This document shows positions 5,545-59,964 of a DNA stretch of 64,000 bases, piece by piece; within the stretch, counting starts at the first letter, position 1; every line of letters begins with the position of its first letter. Below the pieces are notes generated by a model. The model ran no database searches and was not told the DNA's origin. It saw nothing but the letters and a program-made list of their open reading frames with translations. Source of the stretch: a virus; the IMG/VR virus record IMGVR_UViG_3300038393_002936; one strand, 5' to 3'. The position numbers and the translations under genes were made by a program.

Positions 5545-5559
5545 AATAATGAACCTCCC

Positions 5560-5862: not shown

Positions 5863-5863
5863 G

Positions 5864-6193
5864 TCAGTCCCGCTTAAAAAACGACAGGAGCTCGTCGGCC
5901 AGCCCGTCATCACCGAAGGCTTCTGTTGCCGTCACGAACCCCGCCACAGAAGGCTTCCCCCCGGCGGAGGCGAGAGCCCGGCCCTTTTCGGTGTCGGCCG
6001 CGACCGTCCGGTGGACCTGCCGGTAATCCTCGTCGTCGTTCTCGTCGACCTGACAAATTTCGAGACTGTAGTCGTCCCGGCTGCCGTAGGGCAGGTAAAT
6101 ATTGACACTGTTGACATTCTCGAGAGCCTTGCCGTCCACCGAGCACGCCAGCGTCTTGTCGACCGTATCAAATTCAATTGCAATTTTGGCCAT
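5864..6193 (-). CDS. small acidic hypothetical protein
   Basis: ORF with GAGGA RBS, contiguous in the late operon. Confidence 0.65.
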   Translation of the reverse strand: MAKIAIEFDTVDKTLACSVDGKALENVNSVNIYLPYGSRDDYSLEICQVDENDDEDYRQVHRTVAADTEKGRALASAGGKPSVAGFVTATEAFGDDGLADELLSFFKRD

Positions 6194-6195
6194 TT

Positions 6196-8433
6196 TTATT
6201 CCTCGTCCTCACATACACCGTCGTCGTCGTCGAACGTGACAAGTGCGTACGCCATCGCCCGCAACTGGCGGGTCTGGTCGGCGGCCGGAGGCTTCCCGTA
6301 TTCGGCCACGTGCCGGGCGACCGCGGTCTGAACCAGTTGGTCGACGGCCGGGAATACGCGGGGGCCGGCGGCGAGAGCGGCCCGAACACTCTCGGGGCTG
6401 GCCGGCGAATTGACCGCGTGAGCACACAGGACGCCCAACTTGACCCGCTCGAAGGCCTCGGCGTCGGCGTCCGTCAGTTCCCGGGCGGTCTTGAGTCCCT
6501 TGGCGGCCAACAGAGACGGCCGGAGGACCTCGTCGACCGTCTTGAGGGTCGCGTCGGCCCACAACGAGGCCCGAGCCAGGGCGGCCGAAGCCTGTTTGGG
6601 AGCCGGTCGCTTGGTCTTACGTTTGGCCTGGTCTTTGGACCCGGCCGGTCGCCCGTTCGGCTTGGGGTTTTTCTTGTCGCCTGACGGCGCACCTCCGGCA
6701 GGTCGGCTTCGCCGACGTGAGCTTTGCTCACCAGGAGAGGGAGCAGTAGGACGCTTGGCCGGGGGAACCTCGCCGGGCTTGGGCGGGGGCAAGTCGAGCC
6801 CGACCTGGGACGGGGTCACCTCGCCCTGGCCCAATAGGGTCTGGTGAAGCTTCGCTTTTTGCTGAGAGTCCTGGTGGTACGGCCCGGCCTTCGGCGGCAA
6901 AGCCCCCTGCTCCCGCTTCCGCCCTTCCTGCCGGATACGGGCCTGCTCGATGTCGGGGTCGGCCCCGAACCGCTGCTGGACGTAGGTCGCACTGATGACA
7001 TCGCGGTCGATGAGGTCCCTCAACAGGGCCTTCTCGGCGGCATCGTCGGACAGGTCGGGGACCGCGAACGACAGGCTGAACGGCTGGCGGAACCCGAACG
7101 TCTGCCGGAGAATCTCGAGCTCGCCCAGCCAGAACTGCGAGAGCACCATCCGGGCGTACTGGAGTCGTTCGACGAGCACCCGCAGGGACACAAAATTGTT
7201 CGTCATCCCGGCGTCGGTCATCGCCCCGGTCAGGGTCGGCGGGACCCCCAGGCCGATGAACAGGTTCTGCATGGTCTGGGCGTACTTGTCCTTGCCCAGG
7301 AACCGGTAGATTTCCGTGCCGGTCTCGACCAGTTCGAGGTCGGGGCCCCAGACCAGGTCCATGCACCCGCCGCCGGTCGAGTGCAGGAGGATGTCCGCCA
7401 GCATTTGGCAGGCTTCCTGGTTCGGGATAATCTCCTTGTCGAGGTTCCCGAGCTTCCACACGCGGACGTGCGAGATGGCCCCGTCGAGGGCACTGCGGTC
7501 CGCCATCCGCAGCTTCTCGAACATCTGGAGGTCGTCCAAAACCGCGTTCAAAAGCGGCGTGGCCCAGACCTCGTCGTCGTCCTTCTTGTACTGCAAAATA
7601 ACGGTTTTGTTGGGTTCGAGCGGGACCCACTTGTCGTTGACCATCCGCTGCCGGAGGGCGGCCGGGATGCGGCTAACTAGCTGCTTGTCGGCGACACTCC
7701 GCGGGGTCGTGATGCGTTTGAGGAGGGAGTCCGGCGGACGGACCGCGTACGTGACGACGTCGTCGCCAATGAACTGGGCCAGTTCCCCGCCGATGGCCTC
7801 GACGGTGACCGGGTTCAGGACCTTGTAGCCGACCGGAATCTCGCCCGGGGGTAATTTCGTCCTATCGGAACCATTATCGGCCCCCACCGCCGCAACAGCC
7901 CGTAAGGAGGCTATGTCGTTATTGGCCAGTTTGGCAGTTCGACGCCTGATGGGGGCGACGGCTTCACGGAAAAGTCGACGGACAATCCGGTCGCTCACAC
8001 CGGCGATATCGGCTTTTTTGGCCCACTCTCGCCCCCACGCCTGGACCTTGGCGGCCGGGTGAACGACCTGGATTCCCTTGTTCACGAAATCCGTCATCAT
8101 GTCGACGGTATTGCGTACAATGGAGAATCGCTTATAGGCCATCTGGCAGGCGGACTGTATCCCGTGAACTTCGGTCGGGAGCCGCTCGCCCGGCCGGAAA
8201 AAGTCGTAATCCTCGCGGTTGAACCCGTCACGGACCGAGATGCCCGGCTTGTCGATGTTCCGGAACGTACCGATGGCGGTCGCCCGTTCGGCGCCCTGGG
8301 CACTGCGGCTGGCGACGGCCCCGTACCCGACCGCGGCGGCGTTCAGAGCGGCCTGCTTGCCCTTCACGTCGCTGGACTTAAAGGTCTGGTAAAGCGGGCG
8401 TTCGGGACTGTTTTCGGGGCGAGTTCTGCGCAT
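6196..8433 (-). CDS. portal protein with C-terminal extension
   Basis: directly downstream of TerL; 'IVRNTVDMMTDF', 'YKKDDDEVWATPLL', 'GLGVPPTLTG' segments; start could be the GTG at 8478. Confidence 0.8.
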   Translation of the reverse strand: MRRTRPENSPERPLYQTFKSSDVKGKQAALNAAAVGYGAVASRSAQGAERATAIGTFRNIDKPGISVRDGFNREDYDFFRPGERLPTEVHGIQSACQMAYKRFSIVRNTVDMMTDFVNKGIQVVHPAAKVQAWGREWAKKADIAGVSDRIVRRLFREAVAPIRRRTAKLANNDIASLRAVAAVGADNGSDRTKLPPGEIPVGYKVLNPVTVEAIGGELAQFIGDDVVTYAVRPPDSLLKRITTPRSVADKQLVSRIPAALRQRMVNDKWVPLEPNKTVILQYKKDDDEVWATPLLNAVLDDLQMFEKLRMADRSALDGAISHVRVWKLGNLDKEIIPNQEACQMLADILLHSTGGGCMDLVWGPDLELVETGTEIYRFLGKDKYAQTMQNLFIGLGVPPTLTGAMTDAGMTNNFVSLRVLVERLQYARMVLSQFWLGELEILRQTFGFRQPFSLSFAVPDLSDDAAEKALLRDLIDRDVISATYVQQRFGADPDIEQARIRQEGRKREQGALPPKAGPYHQDSQQKAKLHQTLLGQGEVTPSQVGLDLPPPKPGEVPPAKRPTAPSPGEQSSRRRSRPAGGAPSGDKKNPKPNGRPAGSKDQAKRKTKRPAPKQASAALARASLWADATLKTVDEVLRPSLLAAKGLKTARELTDADAEAFERVKLGVLCAHAVNSPASPESVRAALAAGPRVFPAVDQLVQTAVARHVAEYGKPPAADQTRQLRAMAYALVTFDDDDGVCEDEE
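6694..6741 (+). repeat. motif A split by two 15-nt hairpins, inside portal CDS
   Basis: TCCGGCAG GTCGGC-TTC-GCCGAC GTGAGC-TTT-GCTCAC CAGGAGAGGG. Confidence 0.75.
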
Positions 8434-8478
8434 TCCAACTACGTTGTGTTTACAGTTCCACTGTGGGTTGACGCCCAC

Positions 8479-11170: not shown

Positions 11171-12248
11171 TTTCCGCAATGACCCCGCACAAGTGAACGA
11201 ATTCCGATTCAGGAAGCTCTTGTTTCATGAAATTAATATCCTTGAAAATCCACTGTATATTACCTTCGACATAACCCAGTTTTGAATCGATGCGGTCTAG
11301 CGATGCGGTTCGCCTTCGCAGGTCACGGTGAGTTTCTGGCAAAACAAGCTTAATACCAGACAATGCACATCTACCCATTTGCTTCACAAACAAATCCCAG
11401 ACCTGCTCAATGGACACCTCGAAAAGTTTGGAAGTGTTTGCGACTTCCGACCAAACTGAACCTGTAATCCCGCCAAAACCTGTCCTTCGACTAAGGTCAG
11501 TTGTGAACGCATAAGGTTGAGGTGGCTTCTCTCCGCTGACCGCTCGGAGCGGAAATGCAATTAGCCCGCATAGGCCCAAGAAGTAAGGAAGGGAGTAGCT
11601 CTGCTTCATGTAGTTGATGCGACGGTCAACCCACTGGCAATTGCCAACCGAATACGGCAAGGAAGAATCAATGCGGTCCAAGGATGCCGTCGACTCCCGC
11701 AAGCGTTTACCGAAATAGATATCGAGACCACTTATGGCGCACTTACCGTCCTGCGACTCGAATAATTCAGATGCTTCAGCATGGCTGATGCCAAATTCAA
11801 TCCCTCTCGTGGCGACTGAGTTTTTGACAGGCGTCCAGTAAGCAGACGAGATTTTACCGATGTAAAAAAGCTTCTTACAACCACAAGAAGTCGCCCTGCC
11901 ACTTTTCAAGTTATCGCACGATTTAACAGTATAATTACCACAGTCACACCGACATCGCCACATTGCCGTCGGCTCATCCTGCACACCAAGACATTCTTCG
12001 GCAACCAATTTGCCCGAACGGAATCCCTTTATATTTTTAAATTTCCGAACAGCATGACAGTCACGAATTTTATATCCGTGTCTCACAAGATTGTTTTTGA
12101 CTGTCGAATAGGAACACCCGGCCATTCTGCCAATATCTTCGAGTGAAAATTTACGATTATAGTAGGCATCCACTATCACCGGCATGACCAGGCTAACTCT
12201 GACCCCTGGCTTTCTGCCCTTGTATTTTCTTTTCTCTCGATTGGTCAT
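11145..12248 (-). CDS. free-standing HNH-type homing endonuclease with duplicated nuclease domain
   Basis: low GC; N-terminal HTH, WRCRCDCG...SCGC module, two repeats of Q.G.CA.SG...ASLDRIDS...Y..GN.QW...IN.MKQ. Confidence 0.8.
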   Translation of the reverse strand: MTNREKRKYKGRKPGVRVSLVMPVIVDAYYNRKFSLEDIGRMAGCSYSTVKNNLVRHGYKIRDCHAVRKFKNIKGFRSGKLVAEECLGVQDEPTAMWRCRCDCGNYTVKSCDNLKSGRATSCGCKKLFYIGKISSAYWTPVKNSVATRGIEFGISHAEASELFESQDGKCAISGLDIYFGKRLRESTASLDRIDSSLPYSVGNCQWVDRRINYMKQSYSLPYFLGLCGLIAFPLRAVSGEKPPQPYAFTTDLSRRTGFGGITGSVWSEVANTSKLFEVSIEQVWDLFVKQMGRCALSGIKLVLPETHRDLRRRTASLDRIDSKLGYVEGNIQWIFKDINFMKQELPESEFVHLCGVIAENAAQKRRS

Positions 12249-12256
12249 CGCATTCG

Positions 12257-12412
12257 TCACTTGTCTTCCAACCCTTTGATGGCGTAGTCGCCGGTCTTCA
12301 GGGTCCCCACCTCGGTCCCCTGGCACCTCGCACGGGCCAGAAAGGTCCACCCATTTTGTTCGCGGCTGTCGCGGATGACTGTGAATTTGATTTGGTCGGG
12401 CTTGGTGGTCAT
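12257..12412 (-). pseudogene. truncated original 5' end of the ERCC4 nuclease gene (51 aa)
   Basis: translates MTTKPDQIKFTVIRDSREQNGWTFLARARCQGTEVGTLKTGDYAIKGLEDK*, colinear with the N-terminus of 10679..11170. Confidence 0.85.
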
Positions 12413-12718
12413 TTAACTACTGGTAGACTTAGTCACAGAAATAATGATTTCCGGCTTGAGCCATTCGGCCAGGGCCCGGTCGAGCTGGTCGGCGGCGAGG
12501 CCGTACACGTTCCAGTCCGTGTCACTGACGAATCGACAAATGTCCGGGCGGGAAAAACCCCACTTCAGACGGGCCTCGAGCGTCCGCTTGATTTCCCGAT
12601 AACTCGGGCCGACCACGGCCAAAATTCGCTCTTCGCCCTCGTCGGCGAGCAACAATTTGTCCAGGAGGCGAACGGCGTCTTCAGGACTGTCGATACTCAG
12701 TCGGAGTGGGGCACTCAT
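12413..12718 (-). CDS. hypothetical protein
   Basis: MSAPLRLS ORF with overlapping start/stop junctions. Confidence 0.55.
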   Translation of the reverse strand: MSAPLRLSIDSPEDAVRLLDKLLLADEGEERILAVVGPSYREIKRTLEARLKWGFSRPDICRFVSDTDWNVYGLAADQLDRALAEWLKPEIIISVTKSTSS

Positions 12719-13149
12719 GAAATTCTCATGACCGAGACGGGCTGAACCGCACCCAAATTGAAGTGCCCCCGCGGCCCGCACATCTTGATGAAGGCGGATG
12801 CGCCCCGGACCCAGAACCGACATTCGCCGTATTCGACGAGGTGGTCATCGGGTCCTGTCCCGAACGGGACAGTCACTTCTTGCCGGATGGTGTCCAGACC
12901 AGACAAAAACCGGACCGCCACCTCGTTCGGGTCGTCCTCGGGGCCGAACGGGTACAGGGCCGGCAAGCGGTCATCCAGATACCGGGTCGGGTACTGGTGA
13001 CGAGCGTCGAACTGAAAACCCTCGAACACACAGGCGTACCCAGCCGGCTTGTAATCGTTCGGGCAGCAATCACTGTGGGTGCTGCATTTGCAGCGGTAGC
13101 CTTCTTCCGGCAGGAGAGGGGCATCATGAAATAATTCAATGGGCTTCAT
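12715..13149 (-). CDS. hypothetical Cys-rich protein
   Basis: 144 aa ORF coupled to neighbours. Confidence 0.55.
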   Translation of the reverse strand: MKPIELFHDAPLLPEEGYRCKCSTHSDCCPNDYKPAGYACVFEGFQFDARHQYPTRYLDDRLPALYPFGPEDDPNEVAVRFLSGLDTIRQEVTVPFGTGPDDHLVEYGECRFWVRGASAFIKMCGPRGHFNLGAVQPVSVMRIS

Positions 13150-13999
13150 TATCAGATACTACCTCGGCATCACCGAGCCCGACCGTGTCCGGAGTGAGGA
13201 TGGGCCTATCGTAACTAGAGTCGCCGTACTGATGGTGTGCCGATAGGCGGTTGAGTTCTCCCGCGGTGGCCCGTCGCATGAGCTCGATATAACGGTCCCC
13301 CTCCTGCCGGACTGATTCTTCCTGGAGGCTCCGAAGGAGCCCCAAGAAGTCCATTTTGCCGCTCTCAATCCGGTCAACCCGCTGTTGACGGGTCGCCTTG
13401 AGGGCCTCCATCAATTTTTGGTGCTTCTCTTCCAATTTCACATATTCGACGGTCAGGTCCGCCTGTAGGCTGTTCGCCTTTTCGAGCAGTTCGTCCAAAA
13501 TTTGCAATTTCCGGACATCTTCGTCGCTGTCGGGCAGATTGAATTTCTGGAGCTTCAATAGCTGTTCGCGTGTGACCTCGAGCCGCTCGATTTCCCGCCC
13601 GACCCGCCGCTGTTTGACCGCGTTCCGGTGTTTGAGCAGGTCCAGTTTGATGACCTTGAAGACCTGGTTCTCTTCGGTCGGAAGGACCTTGTCCTCGCTG
13701 AACTGGTCCATGAGGGCGACGTACTGTTCCTCGAAGTACGCCAGTTCGTCCTTTTCGAACTCGGCCACCAACTGTTTCCAAGCCGCGCTCTGTTTGAGCC
13801 CGAGCCGGATACTGGACTGGGTTTCGGGTTCGGGCGGACGAGGAGTCGCCGGCTTGGCGCTCATCGCCTTGAGGACGACGTTGACGGACCGGTTAAGCTT
13901 GCCCGCGATATCCTGCGGGGTCATCCGGCCGGCGTTCGCCTCGATGAAGGCGACCTCGGCGTTGCTTAAGCGTCCGCTTTTGGTGGGTTGCTTGGGCAC
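13136..13999 (-). CDS. HTH + coiled-coil protein, candidate terminase small subunit
   Basis: N-terminal 'TPQDIAGKLNRSVNVV' HTH, long coiled coil, upstream of TerL; TerS role is inference. Confidence 0.5.
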   Translation of the reverse strand: MPKQPTKSGRLSNAEVAFIEANAGRMTPQDIAGKLNRSVNVVLKAMSAKPATPRPPEPETQSSIRLGLKQSAAWKQLVAEFEKDELAYFEEQYVALMDQFSEDKVLPTEENQVFKVIKLDLLKHRNAVKQRRVGREIERLEVTREQLLKLQKFNLPDSDEDVRKLQILDELLEKANSLQADLTVEYVKLEEKHQKLMEALKATRQQRVDRIESGKMDFLGLLRSLQEESVRQEGDRYIELMRRATAGELNRLSAHHQYGDSSYDRPILTPDTVGLGDAEVVSDNEAH

Positions 14000-14580
14000 G
14001 CGATGACTCTCACAGCGGCTTCGACCTTTTTCCGGCGACTGGTCGGCAGCCGCTCACCGGCCAACATTCGCAAATAATCCGAGCGAAGCGTGGGGTCGAG
14101 TTCCCGGTCGATTCTGCTACGCAGTTCGTCGAACGAGGCCAGTTCGGCGGCCCTATCATCGGCCTTGAGCCCGCTCTCGCGGTCGTCGGCAATCCCGTCC
14201 AGCGAAAGCGGCCGGGTCAGGTTGGCCTTGGTCGCGTTCCGCTTCTTCCAGGCCAGGTACTTGCGGCAGACCTTGCGGTCCGCGTGCTCGCTTTCGCGAC
14301 CCTGGTGGCACAAGTTACACGGCGGGTCGGTCCGCCTATAATTATCACGCTTGAAGTTAATAAGCCGGCGAACGGCGTGTGTGTACAGATACTTTTCGAG
14401 CGGCCGGGATGGGTCGTACTTGCCTTTGGCAAGCAGTTCTAAGCAGAACACTCGTGTTTCCTGCCGGACGTCTTCGGCCTCCAGGTATCCAAACACGAAC
14501 TTGTCGGACGCCTGGTTAACAACCTTCTCGATGGCCTCGAGGACACTTGCCTCGGTGTGGCCGGGCGGAATTTCCATCAC
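13966..14580 (-). CDS. phage sigma-70-like factor (region 2 plus C-terminal HTH, CxxC insert)
   Basis: 'AEDVRQE...KYDPSRPLEKYLYTHAVRRLINFKRD' resembles sigma region 2. Confidence 0.7.
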   Translation of the reverse strand: MMEIPPGHTEASVLEAIEKVVNQASDKFVFGYLEAEDVRQETRVFCLELLAKGKYDPSRPLEKYLYTHAVRRLINFKRDNYRRTDPPCNLCHQGRESEHADRKVCRKYLAWKKRNATKANLTRPLSLDGIADDRESGLKADDRAAELASFDELRSRIDRELDPTLRSDYLRMLAGERLPTSRRKKVEAAVRVIACPSNPPKADA

Positions 14581-14753
14581 TCGCTTTGCTCGTGTTTCAC
14601 AGGCTTGTCCTTTTCGCTGGCCCAGTCGACCCCGTAGAGGCGTCGACCGTGCGCCCTCAGTATCTCATCTGAGCCGTCAGGCTCAGGGTCCGGCAGGGAA
14701 AGTTCTACCTGGGCCCGCTCTTCGTCTTCGTCCACTGCATATTTGGGATTCAT
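14577..14753 (-). CDS. hypothetical protein
   Basis: MNPKYAVD after AGGAGG RBS and GTGTATTA motif. Confidence 0.55.
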   Translation of the reverse strand: MNPKYAVDEDEERAQVELSLPDPEPDGSDEILRAHGRRLYGVDWASEKDKPVKHEQSE

Positions 14754-23129: not shown

Positions 23130-23393
23130 ATGATTCAAAAAGGCTCTGTCCTCCGCCTGCACGAAAAAGGGCTTTATAGGGTCGGGGACTTTCGAATTAC
23201 CATCAGTGAAGAGTCAGGAAATTACGTGGCCCAGCTGATGATGACGGGAGACGATGGGGTCGAATACTGGTATCCGGTAGAAATGGTCGTGGAGCTCATT
23301 CGCGACAGTAAACTCTACCCACACGGGCAAGAAGACATCATTGGCCGGCTTCACAAGATTCTGGCAGAGAAGCGACAAGGAACGGAGCCTTAA
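23130..23393 (+). CDS. hypothetical protein flanked by motif B copies
   Basis: GGAGG RBS; TAA stop supplied by motif B. Confidence 0.55.
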   Translation: MIQKGSVLRLHEKGLYRVGDFRITISEESGNYVAQLMMTGDDGVEYWYPVEMVVELIRDSKLYPHGQEDIIGRLHKILAEKRQGTEP

Positions 23394-23436
23394 TAGAGGG
23401 GATTGGAAGTTTAGACTACGCCTGAAGGAGCATCCC

Positions 23437-24305: not shown

Positions 24306-24593
24306 GTGACTATTCAGGAAAGGGTTCAGCGAGGGATTGAACTGCTTGATGCGAAAGTTCCCGGCTGGGCCAGCAGGATTAACCTGGACAACCTTCAGTT
24401 AAGCGACTGTGTCGAGTGCGTTCTGGGCCAACTCTTCGGCCGGTTTTCGAAAGGGGCGGACGAGCTCGGCCTGGACTACTGCTCAAGCAAAATCAGAGAC
24501 CACGGATTCGACGCCCAACCGAGTGACGCAACAGGTGACTTCCAAAGACTCCAAAAAGAGTGGGTGCGACGAATCCAGGAACGCAAGGCTTAA
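24306..24593 (+). CDS. 'QERVQRG...CxxCVLGQLF' family protein 1
   Basis: paralogs at 26333 and 26623. Confidence 0.7.
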   Translation: MTIQERVQRGIELLDAKVPGWASRINLDNLQLSDCVECVLGQLFGRFSKGADELGLDYCSSKIRDHGFDAQPSDATGDFQRLQKEWVRRIQERKA

Positions 24594-24691
24594 TAGAGGG
24601 GATTGCTTGGGTGAGCTTCGCTCACGGTGGCCCATTCTGTTCGTCCCTTATGTACCGAAAAACAGAAAAAGCGACCGCCACCATCAGGTAA

Positions 24692-31216: not shown

Positions 31217-31283
31217 TTCCGGCAGGAAAGGTTAATAGGGGTGATTGGATGGATAACCACAACACTCCCCTCTCCTGCCGGAA
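31217..31283. repeat. A-B-A' element
   Basis: TTCCGGCAGGAAAGG TTAATAGGGGTGATTGGATGG ... CCCCTCTCCTGCCGGAA. Confidence 0.85.
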
Positions 31284-31422
31284 ATTAGTTAGTCGCTTCA
31301 ACGAGGAACGAGCAGGGGTTTACCCAAGCAATCCCCCTCATTAAGTCCGAGCAACGCGAGTAAAGTAAGCGACCACCTGACCAAACTTCAAGGACCATTC
31401 CAACTCCGCCAGGGGCGAAGCC

Positions 31423-34491: not shown

Positions 34492-34517
34492 CGCACTCAA
34501 GCTATTCTAAGAAGACT

Positions 34518-34647
34518 TTCCGGCAGTCGTCTCCGACGACGGGAGCGAAGCTCCCACAGTCGGCTTTGCCGACAGGACCGGAGGTCCGGCAGGAGAGGGA
34601 GAATGGGGCGAACATCCAATCCCCCTTATTAACCTTCTCTGCCGGAA
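34518..34647. repeat. full-length composite element (4 hairpins-A-B'-A')
   Basis: aligns with the reverse complement of 55401-55482 with compensatory stem changes. Confidence 0.85.
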
Positions 34648-34702
34648 CTACGTTCTCGCCAGCTCCGCTGACTGCTTGATTGACTACTTATTGGAGAAGT
34701 TT

Positions 34703-38550: not shown

Positions 38551-40368
38551 ATGTGCATGACCGCAACTTATGACCCGGCCGACAACAAGCTTCGCTTGTA
38601 CTCGGACAGCCGACTTCCCCGTCAAACCTACGAACAGGTCCGGGCCGCTGGCTTCATCTGGGCTGCCAAGCAAGAGTTGTTTGTAGCTCCGGCCTGGACA
38701 CCTGAGCGAGAGGACTTGTTGCTGGAGCTGTGCGGGGAAATCGGGGACGAGGACACTTCGCTCGTTGAGCGAGCCGAAGAGCGAGCCGAAAGATTTGAAG
38801 AGTACAGTGAGAAGCGAGAAAACGAGGCCGAACGGGCTCACACAGCGGTCGAGCAGCTAGTGGACGGGATTCCGCTCGGCCAGCCGATTTTGGTCGGGCA
38901 TCACTCGGAGCGACGAGCCCGCAAGGACAAGGAGAAGATTGAGGCCGGGCTTCGCAAGGCGGTCAACCTATGGCGGACATCGCAATACTGGGAGGAACGA
39001 GCCCGTGGAGCACTGCGGCACGCCAAGTACAAGGAATTGCCGGCCGTCCGATACCGGCGAATCAAGGGGCTGGAGGCCGACAAGCGGAAGCAGGAGCGAG
39101 TCCTGGCGGACTCTGAAAAATCGACGAAGTCGTGGTTGGCGGAAGGTCTGGAACTGACGCCTGAGCGGGCGTTAGCTATCGCCAACTATGACCATATCTC
39201 GCGGTGCTTTCCGCTCGCCGAATATCCGAGGGAGTCGCCTGCCTCTCTGTACGAGGGCCAAATGTCCCTTTGGTCAGCTCTCGAAGACCAAATTATTACG
39301 CCCGACCAGGCCCGGGACATTGCCGTGAAGGCTCACGCGGCGACGGCTGTGAGGGCTCGGCGGTGGCTGGAGCACATCGAAAACCGGCTGCGGTACGAAC
39401 GGGCGATGTTGGGAGAACAAGGTGGGATTGTGGCGAACAAGAGCAGGCCCGAGGTCGGGGGCGGGTGCAAGTGCTGGGCTTCTCCCCGCGGCGGCTGGTC
39501 CTTCGTCAAGAAAGTGAACAAGGTGTCGGTGACGGTCGAGGACAACTGGGGAAACGGCGGCAAAAACTTTACGCGGACTATCCCCTTTGACAAGCTCACG
39601 GCCCTGATGAGCAAAGAAGAGGTCGAGACGAAGAGGGCCACGGGGGAATTGGTGGTAACGGAGGACGGGCGAGGTTACTTCGTGTCGTCTGCGACGACAG
39701 TCGGCAAAGCTGACGAGGACGAGGCCTCGCCAGTTGGCGGGAACGGAATTCCGGCAGGAGAAGGGTTAATAGGGGGGATTGGAAGTTTGCCACACTTCCC
39801 TACTCCTCTGCCGGAAAAGAACAAGTTCGAGGTCGCCGCAGAGGCCCTGCGAAACGGGGTCCAAACCGTCTCCGCCCCAAACCTGTTCCCGACCCCGCCC
39901 GACATCGCCCGGCAACTCGTGGGACTGGCGGACATCAGCGACGGGATGAGCGTGCTCGAACCCTCGGCCGGCACCGGAAACCTGGCCGACGCCGTCATGC
40001 AGCACAGTAAGCCGGGGTCGCTCTGCCTGGTCGAGCTGAACAGCCAGCTGTGTGCTTTGCTGGCGAGCAAGGGCTACTCGGTGGTCCAGGGCGATTTTTT
40101 GGAGCAAAACGGCGATATCGGTCAATTCGACCGAGTCGTGATGAACCCGCCTTTTGACCACGGTCTGGACATCAAGCACGTCAGGCATGCCCTGACGAAG
40201 CTGAAGCCGGGCGGTCGACTGGTCTCGGTTATGGCGAACGGACCCCGACAGCGTGAGGCTTTCGAACCCGTCGCCACGACCTGGGTCGACCTGCCGCCGG
40301 ACTCGTTCAAACAGCAGGGGACGAGCGTGAACACGGCCATCGTCGTGCTGGACGCTTCGGCGGCTTGA
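38551..40368 (+). CDS. DUF3560 domain fused to N6-adenine-type SAM methyltransferase
   Basis: TATYDPADNKLRLY, GQPILVGHHSE (DUF3560); FPTP, LEPSAGTG, NPPF (amino-MTase). Confidence 0.85.
   Translation: MCMTATYDPADNKLRLYSDSRLPRQTYEQVRAAGFIWAAKQELFVAPAWTPEREDLLLELCGEIGDEDTSLVERAEERAERFEEYSEKRENEAERAHTAVEQLVDGIPLGQPILVGHHSERRARKDKEKIEAGLRKAVNLWRTSQYWEERARGALRHAKYKELPAVRYRRIKGLEADKRKQERVLADSEKSTKSWLAEGLELTPERALAIANYDHISRCFPLAEYPRESPASLYEGQMSLWSALEDQIITPDQARDIAVKAHAATAVRARRWLEHIENRLRYERAMLGEQGGIVANKSRPEVGGGCKCWASPRGGWSFVKKVNKVSVTVEDNWGNGGKNFTRTIPFDKLTALMSKEEVETKRATGELVVTEDGRGYFVSSATTVGKADEDEASPVGGNGIPAGEGLIGGIGSLPHFPTPLPEKNKFEVAAEALRNGVQTVSAPNLFPTPPDIARQLVGLADISDGMSVLEPSAGTGNLADAVMQHSKPGSLCLVELNSQLCALLASKGYSVVQGDFLEQNGDIGQFDRVVMNPPFDHGLDIKHVRHALTKLKPGGRLVSVMANGPRQREAFEPVATTWVDLPPDSFKQQGTSVNTAIVVLDASAA
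39684..39816. repeat. composite element inserted in frame in the DUF3560-MTase linker
   Basis: GTCGTC-TGC-GACGAC, GTCGGC-AAA-GCTGAC, TTCCGGCAGGAGAAGGG, TTAATAGGGGGGATTGGAAG, CCTCTGCCGGAA. Confidence 0.85.
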
Positions 40369-40602
40369 CTTCGTCAAGTGGAGCAGGTCGGCTCCGCCGA
40401 CGTAAGCTCCACTCACCAGGAAAAGAGGATGGCCATGCTAGACAAGCTGCTGAACTGGTTAAGGCGACTCCTTGGGCTGGAGCTAATTTATTGTCGGTCG
40501 TGTGGGTCTCGGCCGTCGTCTTGGAATCACCCAGAAGACGACTGTCCAGAAGATTGCTGGTCTGCGTACTACGGACTCCGAGACTCATTCTAATGAAGGC
40601 TG

Positions 40603-40666
40603 TTCCGGCAGGGAAGTGGGCATGGGTCGTCCAAGCAATCCCCCCTATTGACCCTCTTCTGCCGGA
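40603..40666. repeat. A-B'-A' element
   Basis: TTCCGGCAGGGAAG...CCAAGCAATCCCCCCTATTGA...CTTCTGCCGGA. Confidence 0.8.
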
Positions 40667-40764
40667 CCTTCGCTCTTGCCAATATCCCCCTTTGCACCAT
40701 CTCAAGTAACGACTCGCTGGCGAAAGCCTCGCGTAGCGAGTGACTAATTTAATGAGGAGTTTCC

Positions 40765-42671: not shown

Positions 42672-42983
42672 GTGCGATTTTACGAATTGGCAGTACGGCT
42701 TCGTCGAGATAAAGACCCGTCTTCGGGTCACTATTTACATAGTCGCTTTGTGTGCCAGGACCACTGCGGCCGGTTTTATGTGGGGTTCGAGCCCATGCCG
42801 ATTGCTTCGCATAAGGTGGGCATGGCGACGGGTTCGTGTTATGCCCAGATGACCGATGTTGAGTGTGTCGAAGTTCGTGTTGCCGAACGCGATAGCGTTA
42901 AATTCGACTCAAAGGAGGACCCGTGGAACTCGACAAACCCATCACCATCCAAGACGTTTTGTCTTTGGTTCATGGCCTGCTGA
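42672..42983 (+). CDS. hypothetical protein
   Basis: GGGAG RBS. Confidence 0.45.
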   Translation: MRFYELAVRLRRDKDPSSGHYLHSRFVCQDHCGRFYVGFEPMPIASHKVGMATGSCYAQMTDVECVEVRVAERDSVKFDSKEDPWNSTNPSPSKTFCLWFMAC

Positions 42984-43180
42984 ATTTTCCCTACCCCCGG
43001 ATTTGCCGCCATGCGGTCGCAAGCAACCTTCTGTCAGAACTCGAAGCGAGAGGCTGGAAGTGTCCGCCTGAATTGGAGGAGGCGGTCGTCCGATGTCAGG
43101 ATGATGACGCAATCGCCATAATCGACAGGCTTGTTGGCGAAGCCGACGGGACCGGAGGTCCGGCAGGAGAGGTTAAGTAG
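42923..43180 (+). CDS. hypothetical protein (C-terminus overlaps repeat)
   Basis: AGGAGG RBS; ends GEADGTGGPAGEVK encoded by the hairpin-A element. Confidence 0.55.
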   Translation: MELDKPITIQDVLSLVHGLLNFPYPRICRHAVASNLLSELEARGWKCPPELEEAVVRCQDDDAIAIIDRLVGEADGTGGPAGEVK

Positions 43181-48773: not shown

Positions 48774-49157
48774 ATGTCTGAGATTAACCCCTGCACGCTT
48801 TGGGCGTTTCTTGAGAAGTTTTACCAAAGCGATGAAAAAGACCTGACATCTTTACTTGTTGCCTGTGATTATCTGGGAGAACATGGCGATTCTCGGGGTG
48901 AGAACCTTCGTCGTCGCATCAAGCGGCAGGCTGCTCTGAAGGCAAAAGTAGCCGTTAAGTATGGGGACGGATACTCACAACGAACAAGCTGTGGGCTACA
49001 CAATTATGTACGTGACATGTTTCCCGAATGCAAAACCTCATACAGCCTCTTAATGAGAGAAAAGGTCGACAGAACAATGAGGCGACTGTGGGGCCTTTTA
49101 CCGAGTCGCCAGGAACAGTCGCACGACACCGGAGAAGTGTCCTGGAGCTCGAAATAA
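48774..49157 (+). CDS. degenerate TIGR02996-like protein
   Basis: DLTSLLVACDYLGEHGDSRGENLR resembles D.PRLVYADWLEE.G..RAEFIR. Confidence 0.55.
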   Translation: MSEINPCTLWAFLEKFYQSDEKDLTSLLVACDYLGEHGDSRGENLRRRIKRQAALKAKVAVKYGDGYSQRTSCGLHNYVRDMFPECKTSYSLLMREKVDRTMRRLWGLLPSRQEQSHDTGEVSWSSK

Positions 49158-49261
49158 TCACGCACGACCTTGTGCGAGCCCAGTATTACGCTAAAATATG
49201 CTCTATTGAACCGAATGAGGCAAGAACGCAGGCCCTGGCGGGGCCGACTTCAGGAGGCCCC

Positions 49262-49993
49262 ATGAATCAAGAAAACGCCTTGCTCCGAGCTATTTGCGAG
49301 AATATCGACGACGACACGCCTCGGCTTGTTTTCGCCGACTACCTCGAAGAACGTGGCGAAGAAGCCTGGGCCCAGTTCATCCGAAGCCACATTGCCGCCA
49401 CAAGAGCTGGCGTAGCCGAGTTCGGAGACGAATCGAACGACCGCTCGTTGAAACTCGAGTTTGTGCCACCCAAAACCGTGGTGGTCAAGGTTGTTCCTCC
49501 GGACGGCCCCGATAAGACTGGTTCAGACTCGAGCGTGCCGCTTTTTCTTCAGTGGGCTAAGCGACTTGGGCTTCCTGACTGCCTCGAATATTGCAAGCTG
49601 AGTCGATGGGACCGCGGATTTCCTGCTGTTTATAGTATCGAATCCGCAGTTGGCTTCTCCCGGTCTGTTAAGACATCACTATTTTCTCGAGTGCCCATCC
49701 GACATTTTAAGGTCGAGTCCAGACAACCACAAGAAATGTCGGCATATGCCGGCTCGCATTCTTGGTTTGAGTGGCGCAAGCAAATAAAAGGCAACCGCGG
49801 GAGATATTTTCTTCCAGCAAGTATTTTTGAGATACTCGACAATCCAGCCCAAAACATAAGCTTAGTGCATTTTTTCTCCAGAAAAGAAGCGGACGAAGCC
49901 GCGTGGACTGCGTATGCGAGGCGAGGGCGGGTTTTGAATTTGGGTCATACTGGGGAGAACCGGGTTGCCGGGTGCTTAGTCACGGAGCGTTAA
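49262..49993 (+). CDS. TIGR02996 domain protein
   Basis: ALLRAICENIDDDTPRLVFADYLEERGEEAWAQFIR...WDRGFP. Confidence 0.85.
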   Translation: MNQENALLRAICENIDDDTPRLVFADYLEERGEEAWAQFIRSHIAATRAGVAEFGDESNDRSLKLEFVPPKTVVVKVVPPDGPDKTGSDSSVPLFLQWAKRLGLPDCLEYCKLSRWDRGFPAVYSIESAVGFSRSVKTSLFSRVPIRHFKVESRQPQEMSAYAGSHSWFEWRKQIKGNRGRYFLPASIFEILDNPAQNISLVHFFSRKEADEAAWTAYARRGRVLNLGHTGENRVAGCLVTER

Positions 49994-50662: not shown

Positions 50663-51448
50663 ATGTCTGAGGAATCTTTCTTACAGGCCATCTACCGCAA
50701 TCCCCGAGACGACATGCCGAGACTGGTCTACGCGGATTGGCTGGACGAGAACAGCAACAGTGACCGGGCCGAATTCATCCGTCTCCAATTCGAGATTGCA
50801 GCCCAACGAGCGGGCCTCGTCGCTGCTTCAGAAGAGAATGACCGGCGACAGGATTGGTTAGAGCAGCGAGAAAGGGAACTTTTAGAGAAGAACTGGCAAC
50901 AATGGCTGCGACCTCTTCATAGTTGGATACTCTATCGAAATTGCGATACAAACATACTCACTTATGAAAACATAACAGGGAACCGTGCCGTTGTACGTTT
51001 TCGCAAGGGCTTCCCCGGCGAAGTGAATTTAAACACAGACACTTTTCTCGGTATTCCCTGCCTAGCCCATGCTAGGTCCGGCGAGAACTGCATTAACTGT
51101 GGCGGAACAGGTGCCACAAAGGGGGCCGCCCTCACTCTCCTACCGGAACTGCCCACTGTTACCAAAATAAGCTTAGCTGACAAGCGGCCATCCGAGTGGT
51201 CCGAAGACGCAGGCTCCTCATCGTTCGACGGACGAACTTTTTACTCGTGGTTTGGCCCTGAATCTATCCTTGGGCTGGACCAAGAACATACCAGGATTCC
51301 TGAACCTTTATTTCAGCTGATGATGCGAGCGGGGCACAAACAGGGGAATTTTGGTCACACCCTGCGGTTTGAGACGGCGGCAGATGCCCAAGAGGCTTTG
51401 TCCGAGGCCTGCCTGGGCTACGCCCAGAGTTTAAAGGAGAAGTTATGA
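50663..51448 (+). CDS. TIGR02996 domain protein with CxxC insert
   Basis: FLQAIYRNPRDDMPRLVYADWLDE...RAEFIRLQ...FRKGFP...CINCGGTG. Confidence 0.85.
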   Translation: MSEESFLQAIYRNPRDDMPRLVYADWLDENSNSDRAEFIRLQFEIAAQRAGLVAASEENDRRQDWLEQRERELLEKNWQQWLRPLHSWILYRNCDTNILTYENITGNRAVVRFRKGFPGEVNLNTDTFLGIPCLAHARSGENCINCGGTGATKGAALTLLPELPTVTKISLADKRPSEWSEDAGSSSFDGRTFYSWFGPESILGLDQEHTRIPEPLFQLMMRAGHKQGNFGHTLRFETAADAQEALSEACLGYAQSLKEKL

Positions 51449-52575
51449 ACGACGAGACAGCCTTGTTAAAAGCCATCACGGAACATCCCAACGAAGACAC
51501 CCCGCGACTCGTTTATGCTGACTATCTTTAAGAACAGGGTAAACCCGACAGGGCCGAGTTTATTCGAGTTCAGTGTGAGTTAGCGAAGCTTGCACCGCCG
51601 AGGGTTATCCGGGTCGGGTCTTGTTACAGCTTTCAGTTCGAAGCCGAGCTGGAGCTAGGAACTCGTGTCGACCAAGCAGACCTATCTTGGCGAATCGGCG
51701 AGGTGTTCGACCTCAAACAAATCACATCGCGAATTTCGGCTACCTGGCACCATGATATGATTCTGACCAGCATTTCACCTCGGTCTGGTGGAGGGGCCGA
51801 GCTTCTTTTTCGCCAGGGAAAGGTGTGGGGGCACCGCTTGCGGTACGAGTATCTTCTTAATCGTCAACACCACCTCCTGTGTTTCAGCGAAACCGGCCCG
51901 TCGCCCTGGTATTCGTGGGCTTTCGTACCGCACAAGGACGAAGAGGGAAGCCCTTCGGGACCCGGTAATCGGGGCGGAATGACGCTCCACCCGGCTCACT
52001 GCGACCAGTTTCCATACATCGAGGTGTCGCCACGGATTCGCCAGACGTTTCGACGGGGCTTCGTGGACGAGGTCGAGTTGCCCATCGGGGCCTTCGCCGG
52101 GCATTGCCCGGCGTGTGAAGACGGCTGGTTTATCAACGAGACACCGAATGCAGGAGACGGTGAAGACGGTGTTGTTGGGGGCAGCCGGATGAGGTGCGAG
52201 GTGTGCTACGGGGCTGGTCAGCGAGAAGGCTACGCCGGAGCTCTGTTCCGAGAGCATCCAGCGATTCGGAAGGTCATCTTCAGGAGCAGAAATCCCGTCC
52301 TACCGAGGGCATTAGGCCGCCAGGTCCGGCTGCCAGAGTGGCGGGCTCGGTCGAGCGATTTGGGTCTTGATTTTATCGACACTGTTCCGTTCGGCTTGTT
52401 TAAGCTACTTGAAAATGGCGAGTATTCCGAAGCGTTCCGAGGACCTGGACTCAAGGAGCCTGTAATTTCTGTTAGTCGAACCTACCAATCGACCGAAGAC
52501 GCAGTCGCGGACCTATCTGACGCTGCCATCACCTACGGCAGGAATGAAGCTCTAAAGATGGCGGTGACAGTATGA
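51445..52575 (+). pseudogene. TIGR02996 domain protein with in-frame TAA at 51529-51531
   Basis: MNDETALLKAITEHPNEDTPRLVYADYL*EQGKPDRAEFIRVQ continues in frame into ORF 51703..52575 (FRRGFV, CPAC, CEVCYGAG). Confidence 0.8.
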
Positions 52576-53486
52576 CGGAAAGCGTAGCTTTCAAGCGGGC
52601 GATTCTTGAAAACCCGGCCGAAGACACACCCCGACTCGTTTACGCCGATTGGCTCGACGAACACGCCGGTTTTATAAAGTGCCCGTACTGCTATGGGGAT
52701 GGCATCCTGGGACCGATTGCCGGGATTCCGAAGGGTGAATGTGAAGACTGTAAGGGTACGGGAGAAGTGTCCGACAAAAGTCGGGAGCGAGCTAGTTTCA
52801 TTCGGGCCCAGGTCCAGGCCGCATGCGGGTTCGAGCTAGAAAGTATGCGGCTCTGGAACTTGCTCCACCACTCCGCAGAATGGTTCCCCGATGTGTGCAA
52901 GTCGCTCAATCTTGGCGTTAACCACTGGGGCGTGATGCACGATAACACGGTGCATTTTGAGCACAAGAACACCGTGAACGAGTTCTTTGTTCGCCGGGGC
53001 TTCGTGGATGAAATTCGTGTGCCACTGTCGTGGCTGATAGGAAGGGACTGCGAGCGGTGTCAGGGCCGGGGTCACGAGCTAGTTCCAGTATACGAGCCAG
53101 TCCGGGAGACAACCTGCGGAGGATGTGGAGGTCGGCTGGTCACCCGCGATGACACCCCTGCTGGTCGTGGGGCGAAGTGGTGTTCGTCGTGCTGGGGGAT
53201 GACTTCTCCGCGGTACGCTGGGCACGAACAAGCCGTTGACTGCCTGTGGTGCGTCAGCGGCCGAGTCGGCGGCTGTCAGTCAGTCCTCGAAGCGAATCCC
53301 GTTAAGAAAATCGTGGTCGGGGACCTAAGAATCGAAATTGAGCCACCGGGTCCTGACTACGGTTGGCAAGCGTATTTTTATAGAGCAGAAGAAGAATCAT
53401 ATCATTATTTTATCGGCGGTGGCCTGAGTCGATGCGAAATGCTGGCTGAACTTTTTGAATGCGTCTCGTCAGTGCTCACACCTTGA
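52572..53486 (+). CDS. TIGR02996 domain protein with multiple Zn-finger inserts
   Basis: AFKRAILENPAEDTPRLVYADWLDE; CPYCYGDG, CEDCKGTG, CERCQGRG; RRGFV. Confidence 0.85.
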   Translation: MTESVAFKRAILENPAEDTPRLVYADWLDEHAGFIKCPYCYGDGILGPIAGIPKGECEDCKGTGEVSDKSRERASFIRAQVQAACGFELESMRLWNLLHHSAEWFPDVCKSLNLGVNHWGVMHDNTVHFEHKNTVNEFFVRRGFVDEIRVPLSWLIGRDCERCQGRGHELVPVYEPVRETTCGGCGGRLVTRDDTPAGRGAKWCSSCWGMTSPRYAGHEQAVDCLWCVSGRVGGCQSVLEANPVKKIVVGDLRIEIEPPGPDYGWQAYFYRAEEESYHYFIGGGLSRCEMLAELFECVSSVLTP

Positions 53487-55269: not shown

Positions 55270-55298
55270 TTGACTTCCCTCCGGTTCAGTCACACAAT
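55270..55298 (+). promoter_or_regulatory. sigma70-like promoter abutting motif A
   Basis: TTGACT-17 bp-CACAAT then TTCCGGCAGG at 55301. Confidence 0.5.
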
Positions 55299-55300
55299 TA

Positions 55301-55482
55301 TTCCGGCAGGAGAGGGGACAGTAGGGCGGGAAAGGTGAACTCGTGGGCGGGTAGCCGCATCACCCGTGAACGAAGTGAACCATCCAATCCCACCTATTAA
55401 CCTCTCCTGCCGGAACTTCGTTCCCGTCGGTTTCGCCGACTGTGGAAAGCTTCGCTTCCGTTGACGGAGTCAACTGCCGGAA
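55301..55482. repeat. longest composite element (A-B'-A'-4 hairpins)
   Basis: reverse complement aligns with 34518-34600 and with 14830-14867 (B + TTCACTTCGTTCACGGG). Confidence 0.85.
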
Positions 55483-55561: not shown

Positions 55562-55813
55562 GTGAGCAATAAACCGGACCACGTGCCGTCCCACTATAGA
55601 CAGTTCAGGTCCAAGAACCGGGACTTCGTTCATATCGAAAACGGGTGGTGTGCCAGACAGGTCCGGGGCAAATGGCGGGTTTTTTATGGTCTTTTACGGC
55701 CGGGGCAAGAATACCCGACCTATGTGACCACTTATCAAGAAGCCGACTCCTATCTGGATTTCATCCAGTTTGCAGAACTCGAACAGTGGGTCTTGGCTCG
55801 GAGAACGCTATGA
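55562..55813 (+). CDS. hypothetical protein
   Basis: coupled to the LexA-like gene. Confidence 0.55.
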   Translation: MSNKPDHVPSHYRQFRSKNRDFVHIENGWCARQVRGKWRVFYGLLRPGQEYPTYVTTYQEADSYLDFIQFAELEQWVLARRTL

Positions 55814-56313
55814 ACGCCCCTGAGCTAAGCTCCCGCCAGCTCGAACTCCTGCTTTTTTACATCAAGCACATCGAAGAACACGGCTACCAGCCGACTTACC
55901 GCGAGGCTGCGACCCATTTTGGAATTACGTCCCGAGCCATTCAGGACCGTCTCTTACAACTGGCCCGCAAGGGTTACTGTGAAATGCCCGTGAAGCGAGG
56001 TGACCGCTGCGTGCGGTTCCCCCACCTGCGCTTTGAACATCACTTCGTGTCCGAACCCACCCCTCCCGAAATAGTGGACGAACCCCATCCCCAGACCGGC
56101 GAAATCATCCGACTTGCCCTTCAGACCTTCTTCTTCAATAATGATAACGAACCTGCCAAGGTCGCCACCATGGCTGAGACCATCGGGGCTGCAATTCCGA
56201 AGGTCTACGCGGCTCTGAACCACGATAAGGAAGGGATTTTTCGAAAGGTCAAAGGGCCAGGGAGGGCCATCTTGTGGCAACTGAGGACCGGTGCCAAAGA
56301 TGCTCGAGTCTGA
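55810..56313 (+). CDS. LexA-type winged-HTH regulator lacking peptidase domain (candidate repressor)
   Basis: LSSRQLELLLFYIKHIEEHGYQPTYREAATHFGITSRAIQDRLLQLARKGY; second wHTH-like C-terminal domain. Confidence 0.75.
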   Translation: MNAPELSSRQLELLLFYIKHIEEHGYQPTYREAATHFGITSRAIQDRLLQLARKGYCEMPVKRGDRCVRFPHLRFEHHFVSEPTPPEIVDEPHPQTGEIIRLALQTFFFNNDNEPAKVATMAETIGAAIPKVYAALNHDKEGIFRKVKGPGRAILWQLRTGAKDARV

Positions 56314-58088: not shown

Positions 58089-59258
58089 TCAGTCGGCCCT
58101 GGACTCCTTGGCGAGTTGCTCGAAGAGCAGGTCTGCGTCGTACGCTTGCTTGGCGTCGAGATAGTATTGCTGAGCGGTCTGTGAAGTGGTCCCGATGGCA
58201 TTCGCCGCCGCATCGACACTGCCCGCCATCCGGGTGGCCAAGGTGATAGCCCGCCGCTTCAGCGAATGGGGCGTAAGACGGGGCTGACCAGGGCGTTCAT
58301 CATTAAACTCTCTGAATATGTTGGAAACGGCCCAAAAGAGCGTTTTAGGGTCGAATTCGTCCTTGTTCTTGGTCCCTGGGCGGAATTTCTTGGCGTCCTC
58401 TGCGTATCGCTCCCACAGCCAGGTCGGGCCGGCGATGGTCTGGAGGCTTGCGAACAAATTAGGGGACAGCTTGATGACTCGGTCGCGACGTTCTTTTTTC
58501 ACCGAAGCGGGGAAGAACAGGCGGCCATCTCGAAGGTCGCTCGTTTTGAGAGAGCAAAGGTCCATCGTCCGACATCCGGCCAGGGCTTTCGTAATGACCC
58601 AAAGCCGCACGAGTGTCCAATCAGGATACCGCTTCTGGAGCCAATCCAGAAATTTGTCGTACTCGTCGGTAGTCGGGACGTGTTTTCGGACCTTGTCGAC
58701 CAGCGGCGGAGAGATGCCGGACCACGGGTTGCTTTTAACGTAGCCCAACTCGTCAAAGTGCTTGTTCCAGAGGGCAGATAGTTTTCGGAGGTAGGTCGCA
58801 GTTGTCGTGGAGCTTCGTTTGTAAACAGTGGCGTCTTTGGCCTTACTCCGCGTAAATCCGGTTGAGCCAAACAGGCGTTTAAATCGTTTGGCGTGTTCGA
58901 CCGTAACGTCAGCCGGCCCCCTCGTGCCTTTAATTGTATCCCGAAATACCCGAACGGTTTTTAAATAATCCTGGAGCGTCCCGGGCCTAATGTCGGTCGT
59001 TTTTTGAAGCTCTTGGACAACATCGTCCCACGAGACGACCACCTCGCCTTCGGGTGTCTTCTCGTAGGCCTTGTGTATCATGCGAACCGCCACCTCGTGG
59101 GCTTCGGTGATGGTTCGACAGCCCGTGCTCAGTCGCCGGAACTTGTCCAGTCCCGGAGGTTGGAACCGTACCTGGTAAACCCCCCGTTGGTCCTGAAGAC
59201 CGTAACTGACCAAAAGTCCATTTGGCAGAAGGGTGCTGAATTCGGGCCGCTTTGGCAC
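58089..59258 (-). CDS. int: tyrosine recombinase/integrase
   Basis: GCRTMDL (R), K, TPHSLKR (HxxR), QQYY (Y); SAM-like core-binding domain; adjacent tRNA-derived att. Confidence 0.88.
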   Translation of the reverse strand: MPKRPEFSTLLPNGLLVSYGLQDQRGVYQVRFQPPGLDKFRRLSTGCRTITEAHEVAVRMIHKAYEKTPEGEVVVSWDDVVQELQKTTDIRPGTLQDYLKTVRVFRDTIKGTRGPADVTVEHAKRFKRLFGSTGFTRSKAKDATVYKRSSTTTATYLRKLSALWNKHFDELGYVKSNPWSGISPPLVDKVRKHVPTTDEYDKFLDWLQKRYPDWTLVRLWVITKALAGCRTMDLCSLKTSDLRDGRLFFPASVKKERRDRVIKLSPNLFASLQTIAGPTWLWERYAEDAKKFRPGTKNKDEFDPKTLFWAVSNIFREFNDERPGQPRLTPHSLKRRAITLATRMAGSVDAAANAIGTTSQTAQQYYLDAKQAYDADLLFEQLAKESRAD

Positions 59259-59378: not shown

Positions 59379-59423
59379 TTCCGGCAGGAAAGGGAGTATG
59401 TCCATACTGCTCTCCTGCCGGAA
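59379..59423. repeat. motif A inverted pair upstream of integrase
   Basis: ATTCCGGCAGGAAAG...CTCTCCTGCCGGAAT. Confidence 0.8.
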
Positions 59424-59821
59424 TATGGCACTAGACTGCACAGCTCGGCTCAGGTTCAGCGAGTATCCCTGCTTCTTGACCAGGGAATCGCTATTGCCAC
59501 CCTAATAAGCCCCTACGCCATCTCCACCTACACCTACACACCTCCCCGCGAGCGGTTCCTGTTTCGCGGCCTCAAGAAACCTCATTTCGAACCACCCTCT
59601 CGCGGGCGAGTGCCGCTTGTCTCTACAGTGGTGCTCAACGCCTCTTGGCGTCACTCGGACTCCGGCGGCTGCCTGGCCCAAGAAGCACTTCGCGAAAAAT
59701 TCAACTTTAAAGTTGAAATATCGCACCAAGCAATATCACAGCGGATGGCAACCGCTACATTTAACATAGTCTTTTTTAGTGTAGTCATCCGCAGAGGTCA
59801 AGGCTGCTTCGCAGTTTTTAG

Positions 59822-59938
59822 TCCGGCAGGGAAGTGGGTGTGCCCGCCCCCACCAGGGGAGTTTGCATGTTCGCCCGACCCCCCTGCCCTACTCTCCTGC
59901 CGGACCTCCGGTCCTGTCGGCTTCGCCGACTGCCGGAA
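59822..59938. repeat. composite A-A'-hairpins element
   Basis: TCCGGCAGGGAAG...CTCTCCTGCC GGACC-TCC-GGTCC T GTCGGC-TTC-GCCGAC TGCCGGAA. Confidence 0.85.
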
Positions 59939-59964
59939 AAACTCCCTCTCGCTCCCAGCCACCC

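Follow-up and report, generated by a model that had tools for sequence, protein, structure and literature searches.

Rickettsia palindromic elements, dispersed palindromic repeats of ~100-150 bp, insert in frame in many unrelated genes, where they lengthen the protein by a peptide but do not destroy it (PMC10969869). In the mitochondria of fungi and sponges, tiny gene-less units of two adjacent hairpins are mostly intergenic, occasionally stand at length-variable sites in genes, and are retained in transcripts (PMC2800124). Prokaryotic MITEs (miniature transposable elements with inverted repeats) such as ERIC, BOX and Coxiella QMITE1 are small, non-coding and bounded by inverted arms, with occasional in-frame fusions (PMC10969869, PMC5896051). 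The stoperators of Cluster A mycobacteriophages are short asymmetric words that occur genome-wide on both strands and also inside genes (PMC9283540, PMC6550527). Here we describe a phage locus with features of all four systems. In the window, that is, the whole 64,000-nucleotide (nt) stretch of DNA from the IMG/VR record IMGVR_UViG_3300038393_002936, a 133-nt copy of a modular repeat lies at 39684-39816, in frame within a gene for a DUF3560-methyltransferase fusion protein. The repeat modules are, in order, mini-hairpins, a word (TTCCGGCAGG..., here called A), a box (TTAATAGGGGGGATTGG, B) and the inverted word (A'). We propose, with a probability of about 0.7, that a copy of the phage's own modular repeat has taken the place of the tether that joins the two modules of this protein. 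A limited full-text literature search found no report of a phage's own repeat serving as an interdomain linker.

The closest comparison is with the Rickettsia palindromic elements, and the first-pass annotation of this DNA had aptly drawn it (PMC10969869). As in those elements, the repeat is read in frame, and the added peptide is compatible with the protein fold, here in an AlphaFold2 model; in the phage protein it takes a surface or disordered position between domains. In contrast to them, the host genome is that of a phage, the repeat is modular (word, 33-nt units, box) instead of following a single consensus, only one full composite was found in a gene, and a linker would have been replaced where the Rickettsia elements add a helix to a folded domain. 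A sequence relation between the two is not expected; the element may best be viewed as a functional analogue of the Rickettsia elements, and we do not claim it as a member. Likewise, the mitochondrial elements share the two-hairpin architecture, whereas the phage units are 33 nt long, viral, and sit at a genome-wide word with a duplicated CAG or word. The terminal inverted repeats of MITEs have a counterpart in A and A', which are imperfect; unlike in MITEs, no target-site duplication flanks the linker copy, a duplicated word or CAG being seen only around the hairpin sub-units, and the copies differ from one another in length and modules. No transposase was found among the 41 window proteins scanned against Pfam, which gave only a weak integrase-like match. 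With the stoperators the word shares its asymmetry and its genome-wide spread on both strands, and the window also encodes a LexA-type DNA-binding protein, whose binding to the word is putative. Stoperators, however, are simple sites of 13-14 bp for which neither hairpin units nor a contribution to coding sequence is known.

We then characterized the gene that carries the element. It encodes a protein of 603 amino acids (aa), and a longer open frame starts at 38491 (open reading frame, ORF, 38491/38557-40368). A conserved N-terminal module spans aa 1-376, and the Pfam DUF3560 match within it (PF12083, E-value (E) 2.3e-36) covers aa 71-189 (or about aa 69-187). The C-terminal domain is a class I S-adenosylmethionine (SAM) methyltransferase with an NPPF motif, seen as VMNPPFDHG (PF05175, E 2.5e-5; phrog_15406, DNA methyltransferase, E 3.6e-41), and its structural matches in Foldseek included N6-adenine DNA methyltransferases and other class I SAM methyltransferases, including RNA methyltransferases. 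The protein thus combines PF12083 with a C-terminal class I SAM methyltransferase bearing NPPF, the features by which a DUF3560-methyltransferase fusion is recognized. We scored 3814 homologs, and the identical protein (P0001) is present in a public collection. The conserved blocks on either side of the linker share one frame, and the helix FEVAAEALRNG continues in that frame. The homologs closest to one half of the query are also those closest to the other, which ruled out a domain swap at the element. Taken together, the many homologs, the single frame of the flanking blocks and the shared closest homologs of the two halves indicate that the two-module architecture is ancestral and that the gene is real. 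The protein is presumably made and active.

The element falls on the junction of the two modules. It codes for the first 44 codons of the linker (39685-39816, 132 nt, aa 377-420), and the remainder of the linker is only K-N-K. In the AlphaFold2 model, which was built from 97 aligned sequences and has a mean predicted local distance difference test score (pLDDT) of 89.7, the pLDDT falls below 50 in a single stretch, aa 379-417, between two confidently folded modules. The first-pass annotation had reported a complete repeat element read without interruption at this place, and both the stop-free ORF and the exact peptide that it quoted are as described. Its boundaries held at the level of the element and needed one correction for the protein: the first G (39684) belongs to the codon of Val376. 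Similarly, the element does lie in an interdomain linker as stated, although it does not directly follow the Pfam domain, which ends by about aa 189; it follows the whole 376-aa module.

To place this linker among its relatives, we aligned 120 homologs (51-61% identical). All aligned homologs share a strand ending G-x-G-F/Y-F/V-L/V and a helix starting F-x-A-[LM], with a variable tether between them. The median linker length of the homologs was 20.5 aa (5th-95th percentile 18-43), compared with 47 aa in the query, which ranks sixth of the 120; linkers equally long or longer were found in 5 of the 119 homologs. The linker was not similar to those of the homologs above chance (best local score 36, against 35.1 +/- 4.3 in a shuffled null), and when the 47-aa peptide was compared by HMMER with 1.84 billion representative proteins, the only two matches were low-complexity, repetitive and unrelated chance matches. 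The peptide thus has no relative among these proteins; the first-pass annotation had proposed that the element creates new peptide sequence. In the homolog loci that we fetched, box B was absent and the word occurred at background level only. The predicted insertion of about 44 aa relative to homologs was borne out in its boundaries, which coincide for element and linker, and in the greater length of the linker; the net excess is ~27 aa and not 44. Element (aa 377-420), linker (377-423) and low-confidence stretch (379-417) coincide. The objection foreseen at the outset, that repeat-free homologs have equally long linkers with similar residues, does not apply: few are as long and none is similar above the shuffled null.

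The junction itself is variable in the family. In five homologs the linker position holds unrelated inserts of 60-167 aa, and homologs L015-L018 match the query only up to the linker, the ORF of L017 ending there without a methyltransferase. These unrelated inserts and the homologs ending in the linker indicate that the junction tolerates change in general. Metagenome and IMG/VR scans with the protein returned only homologs at most ~72% identical, without synteny to the window. In L017, whose DUF3560-only ORF spans 9941-11170, an intergenic palindrome, ATACGCCCCA with its complement, stands at five gene boundaries (7643, 9867, 11185, 11842 and 12437). The over-represented words of L017 and L032 were considered as parallels to the phage repeat and rejected, since they are this intergenic palindrome and a tandem coding repeat, respectively.

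Next, we dissected the in-gene copy (Table 1). It can be divided into a 16-nt remnant, a single intact unit of 33 nt and a 24-nt unit, followed by the word, the box, a mini-hairpin and the inverted word. The remnant is a truncated unit formed by mini-hairpin 1 and the next CAG. The intact unit contains the hairpin GTCGGC-AAA-GCTGAC (39700-39714, one G.T mismatch), and its second hairpin is decayed and carries a duplicated GACGAG, which yields the peptide DEDE; two decayed hairpins lie at 39715-39739, and the hairpin GGAAC-GGA-ATTCC (39740-39752) lies inside the 24-nt unit, which abuts the word on the right side. Elsewhere in the window, the sub-family in which GGAAGT follows B has members at 21760, 23087 and 23391, with others near 24000 and 26030 on the reverse strand. 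A pairs with A' in both the RNA and the DNA folds, and single-strand folding of the element was better than that of shuffled sequences (RNA -58.6 kcal/mol, z -3.1; DNA -30.7 kcal/mol, z -3.3). Of the three plus-strand frames through the element only one is open; over all six frames the count is two.

The in-gene copy belongs to a large family within the window. The core word TCCGGCAGG occurs 55 times in the 64 kb, compared with 0.97 times in shuffles (maximum 5), a density of about once per kb that extends into genes. There are 66 perfect 6-3-6 hairpins where shuffles have 18.5 +/- 4.4, hairpins of the form GTCGNC-NNN-GNCGAC number 11 against an estimated ~0.015 expected, and box B has 22 copies at up to three mismatches, in both orientations relative to transcription. 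In a BLAST search of the element against the window, the best match was 34585-34664 (82% over 85 nt), and further matches were 55383-55426, 31217-31284 and 40600-40682. An alignment of ten copies showed that box B is best conserved and that the word and the spacer are common to most copies; those of the chosen segments that reach the 5' hairpin and the inverted word can be aligned there as well. The enrichment, the BLAST matches and the alignment together establish the in-gene copy as a real family member. The intergenic arrays consist of a word, one or more 33-nt units and a word, with word-to-word spacings of 33, 66, 33, 33, 67 and 34 nt, and each unit comprises two adjacent short triloop hairpins closed by a duplicated CAG or word. 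The span from A to A' is 68 nt in the gene and 67 nt at 31217-31283, and the hairpins of the in-gene copy are more decayed than the intergenic ones. Copies are 60-90% alike and vary in module content and interior length, unlike the uniform copies expected of a MITE. The element was not found in the collections searched: it had no match in a phage GenBank collection or in Rfam (no tRNA was found either), and in IMG/VR plus 185,579 species genomes the word 16-mer and the hairpin-plus-word 19-mer gave only scattered single chance matches.

The repeat also meets coding sequence elsewhere in the window. In-gene words are read in several frames, and 8 of 19, the linker copy among them, are read as PAG; the word and its reverse complement each encode Pro-Ala-Gly in one frame (CCG GCA GGA and CCT GCC GGA). 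A predicted and unverified 85-aa ORF at 42923-43180 (+) ends within a hairpin unit, a word and a B-like TAA, with the repeat read in the frame of the linker copy and the C-terminus VGEADGTGGPAGEVK*; here, for a second time, the repeat may provide coding sequence. The predicted small genes 23130-23393 and 24306-24593 both use the TAA of box B as their stop codon (boxes at 23391-23405 and 24591-24605), and box B may often define gene ends. Two mini-hairpins, CTTGAC-TTC-GTCAAG and GTCGGC-TCC-GCCGAC, extend from the methyltransferase stop codon (40364-40401), followed by a reverse-oriented full composite copy at 40600-40690, 3' of the gene.

Evidence for movement came from proteins of a sister strain. 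The portal proteins P0123 of the window (745 aa) and P0124 of the sister strain (734 aa) are 98% identical and differ by one substitution and a single 11-aa gap, which maps to an in-frame 33-nt double-hairpin unit of the portal gene (6703-6735). Presence and absence are thus seen for the 33-nt sub-unit only, in the portal gene, and the linker copy is invariant between the strains: the linker amino acids of the sister proteins P0121 and P0122 are identical to those of the query. P0121 and P0001 show many differences in the first ~155 residues (window 38557-39020) and are identical afterwards; this contrast, set against the near-identical portal proteins, suggests a recombinant patch in the DUF3560 part. 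Because the linker is identical in both strains, the in-gene composite is older than their split. Decayed hairpins, a best match of 82% to another copy and the unchanged linker of the sister strain all mark the linker copy as old. A portal-based search of IMG/VR for related phages found none. The first-pass annotation had regarded the element as mobile or amplified by gene conversion. Mobility holds for the polymorphic double-hairpin sub-unit; this evidence does not extend to the whole block of hairpins, A, B and A', whose copies are modular and 60-90% alike and whose linker copy is the same in the sister.

Based on the above results, we favour replacement of the linker by the repeat. The net excess over homologs is ~27 aa and nearly the whole tether is element-coded, and hence the ancestral linker of ~20 aa was lost. 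In the ancestral gene, both modules would already have been joined by a Pro/Glu/Ala-rich linker of ~20 aa. A composite of double-hairpin units, A, B, mini-hairpin and A' would then have entered this linker, through insertion at a word or through gene conversion with an intergenic copy as donor, and subsequent deletions would have eliminated the old linker and shortened the hairpin units. Hairpin units do not shift the frame, since 33 nt equal 11 codons; only open-frame versions would have survived, with selection keeping the frame open. The direction and mechanism of the event are conjectural, and the pattern fits a trimmed composite, while a single clean transposition of 133 nt fits less well. 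On the structural model, the 44-aa Gly/Pro-rich peptide is predicted to be a tolerated disordered tether at a junction that would accept almost any length. At the DNA level, the linker copy probably does what the other ~25 composite copies do, which is most likely to bind a putative phage protein that reads the word.

Several observations weigh against replacement by the repeat. The left end abuts the conserved Val376 codon without the flanking word seen in intergenic arrays (TTCGTG stands there instead), and the flanks TTCGTG and AAAGAAC share no repeat that could represent a target-site duplication. The 132 nt could not be decomposed into clean in-frame steps, as the first unit is 16 nt long and thus lacks 17 nt of a complete unit. 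Since the copies are modular and 60-90% alike, the 133 nt are unlikely to represent one mobile unit. The right boundary of the element is uncertain, given that its last six coded residues, PTPLPE, align with PTPxPE at the linker end in three homologs, an alignment that is not above chance. Finally, insertion is inferred from a distant comparison, because the nearest element-free homolog is only 61% identical and no empty-site relative was found.

We also considered that the linker grew in place, the word arising by point mutation in a Pro/Ala/Gly/Glu-rich linker, followed by 33-nt units and by B and A' through local conversion. Words do lie in many genes with the PAG reading in 8 cases, the linker word reads P-A-G-E, hairpin units insert at the word without changing the frame, and 38 of the 119 homolog linkers end in PE, the reading of the inverted word. 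Such growth is nevertheless unlikely: the module order (31217-31283 and 55295-55482) and the A-to-A' span (31217-31283) match intergenic copies, which makes block copying the simplest account, and no significant residual homology to ancestral linkers was left. About equally doubtful is a more far-reaching idea, in which the 33-nt units and their Gly/Pro-coding frame are adapted to disordered segments, so that the repeat writes tethers (in the portal, the methyltransferase and the 3' ends of genes) while its DNA still serves as a regulator site.

Somewhat less probable still is that the copy was kept for a function of its DNA or RNA, as an operator, a roadblock or an internal start (G-rich box, in-frame TTG at 39787), with the peptide as a by-product. 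The genome-wide spread of the word into genes, the LexA-type DNA-binding protein and the weak integrase-like gene in the window, the strong predicted RNA fold, and the linker amino acids kept in the sister strain despite the diverged N-terminus all speak for this. Against it, a scan found no sigma-70-like promoter or intrinsic terminator signal at the elements, box B stands in both orientations relative to transcription, and the hairpins are more decayed than in the intergenic copies. The least probable account, and a very improbable one, is an artefact, either two genes split by a stop-free intergenic element or a chance resemblance to the repeat. Although the similarity of L015-L018 stops at the linker, as does the ORF of L017, the element runs for 44 codons without a stop though two of its three plus-strand frames contain stops, no start codon or ribosome-binding site marks the methyltransferase boundary, the helix FEVAAEALRNG keeps to the frame, fused homologs number in the thousands, and the chance expectation of the motifs is far below what was observed. 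Replacement of the tether by the phage's own repeat thus remains the reading that we prefer.

Table 1. Positions of the DUF3560-methyltransferase gene, the modules of its in-gene repeat copy and the copies used for comparison.
Feature	Position	Strand	Evidence or remark
Gene, 603-aa protein: N-terminal module, linker, methyltransferase	38557..40368	+	PF12083, PF05175, phrog_15406
Interdomain linker, 47 codons, aa 377-423	39685..39825	+	between strand E373-376 and helix H423-433
Methyltransferase domain	39859..40365	+	domain matches, AlphaFold2 model, Foldseek
Mini-hairpin 1, GTCGTC-TGC-GACGAC, perfect 6-3-6	39684..39698	+	14/15 positions match copy 34526-34540
Full-length 33-nt double-hairpin unit, CAG to CAG	39701..39733	+	CAGs at 39698 and 39731 spaced 33 nt
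24-nt unit, a 33-nt unit minus 9 nt in frame, compared with copy near 43133	39734..39757	+	abuts word
Word A, TTCCGGCAGGAGAAGGG, read I-P-A-G-E-G	39749..39765	+	repeat finding, word count
Box B, TTAATAGGGGGGATTGG, read L-I-G-G-I-G; TAA and TAG out of frame	39766..39782	+	box search, alignment
Interior mini-hairpin, stems GGAAGT / ACTTCC	39781..39799	+	RNA and DNA folds
Inverted word A', CCCTACTCCTCTGCCGGAA, imperfect, 1 extra nt, read P-T-P-L-P-E	39798..39816	+	repeat family, folds
Closest intergenic copy: word, two 33-nt units, word, interior, reversed box B, inverted word	34517..34680		BLAST, repeat finding
Intergenic copy: two hairpin units, A, B, interior, A', the module order of the in-gene copy	55295..55482	-	repeat finding
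Comparator: in-frame 33-nt double-hairpin unit in portal gene	6703..6735	-	absent from sister strain

The window has a guanine-plus-cytosine content of 0.58 and resembles part of a tailed phage, one that is uncultured. Its structural genes lie on the minus strand at 536-14735, the portal gene (6199-8433) among them, and are followed by a long run of small plus-strand genes that includes a C5 DNA methylase, a GP88-family protein, an RNase T-like exonuclease, a MoxR ATPase and a DUF2201 protein. Next to the structural genes lie a match to Sigma70 region 2 at 13966-14577 (-), which is weak and misses the cutoff (E 6e-4), and, at 10679-11176 (-), a nuclease domain of ERCC4 type. Three paralogues with a TIGR02996 domain lie at 49028-49993, 50663-51448 and 52572-53486 (E 1e-17 to 1e-20); the name of this model, rpt_mate_G_obs, refers to Gemmata obscuriglobus and hints at a host among the Planctomycetota. 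The LexA-type DNA-binding protein (E 5e-13) is encoded at 55786-56310 and the weak integrase-like gene at 58089-59255, adjoining the composite repeats at 55295-55482 and 59380-59940. This could be an immunity region, and it may encode the protein that reads the word.

Palindromic repeats captured in frame are known from a few bacteria and from organelles, and the locus described here would be a viral counterpart. An entire interdomain linker made from a non-coding repeat represents a route from selfish or regulatory DNA to protein, and such a replacement marks which parts of a viral protein can vary freely. For annotation, it follows that repeat copies within ORFs should not be taken as frameshifts or gene boundaries. 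In the widespread DUF3560-methyltransferase family, the linker could be exploited as a permissive insertion site.

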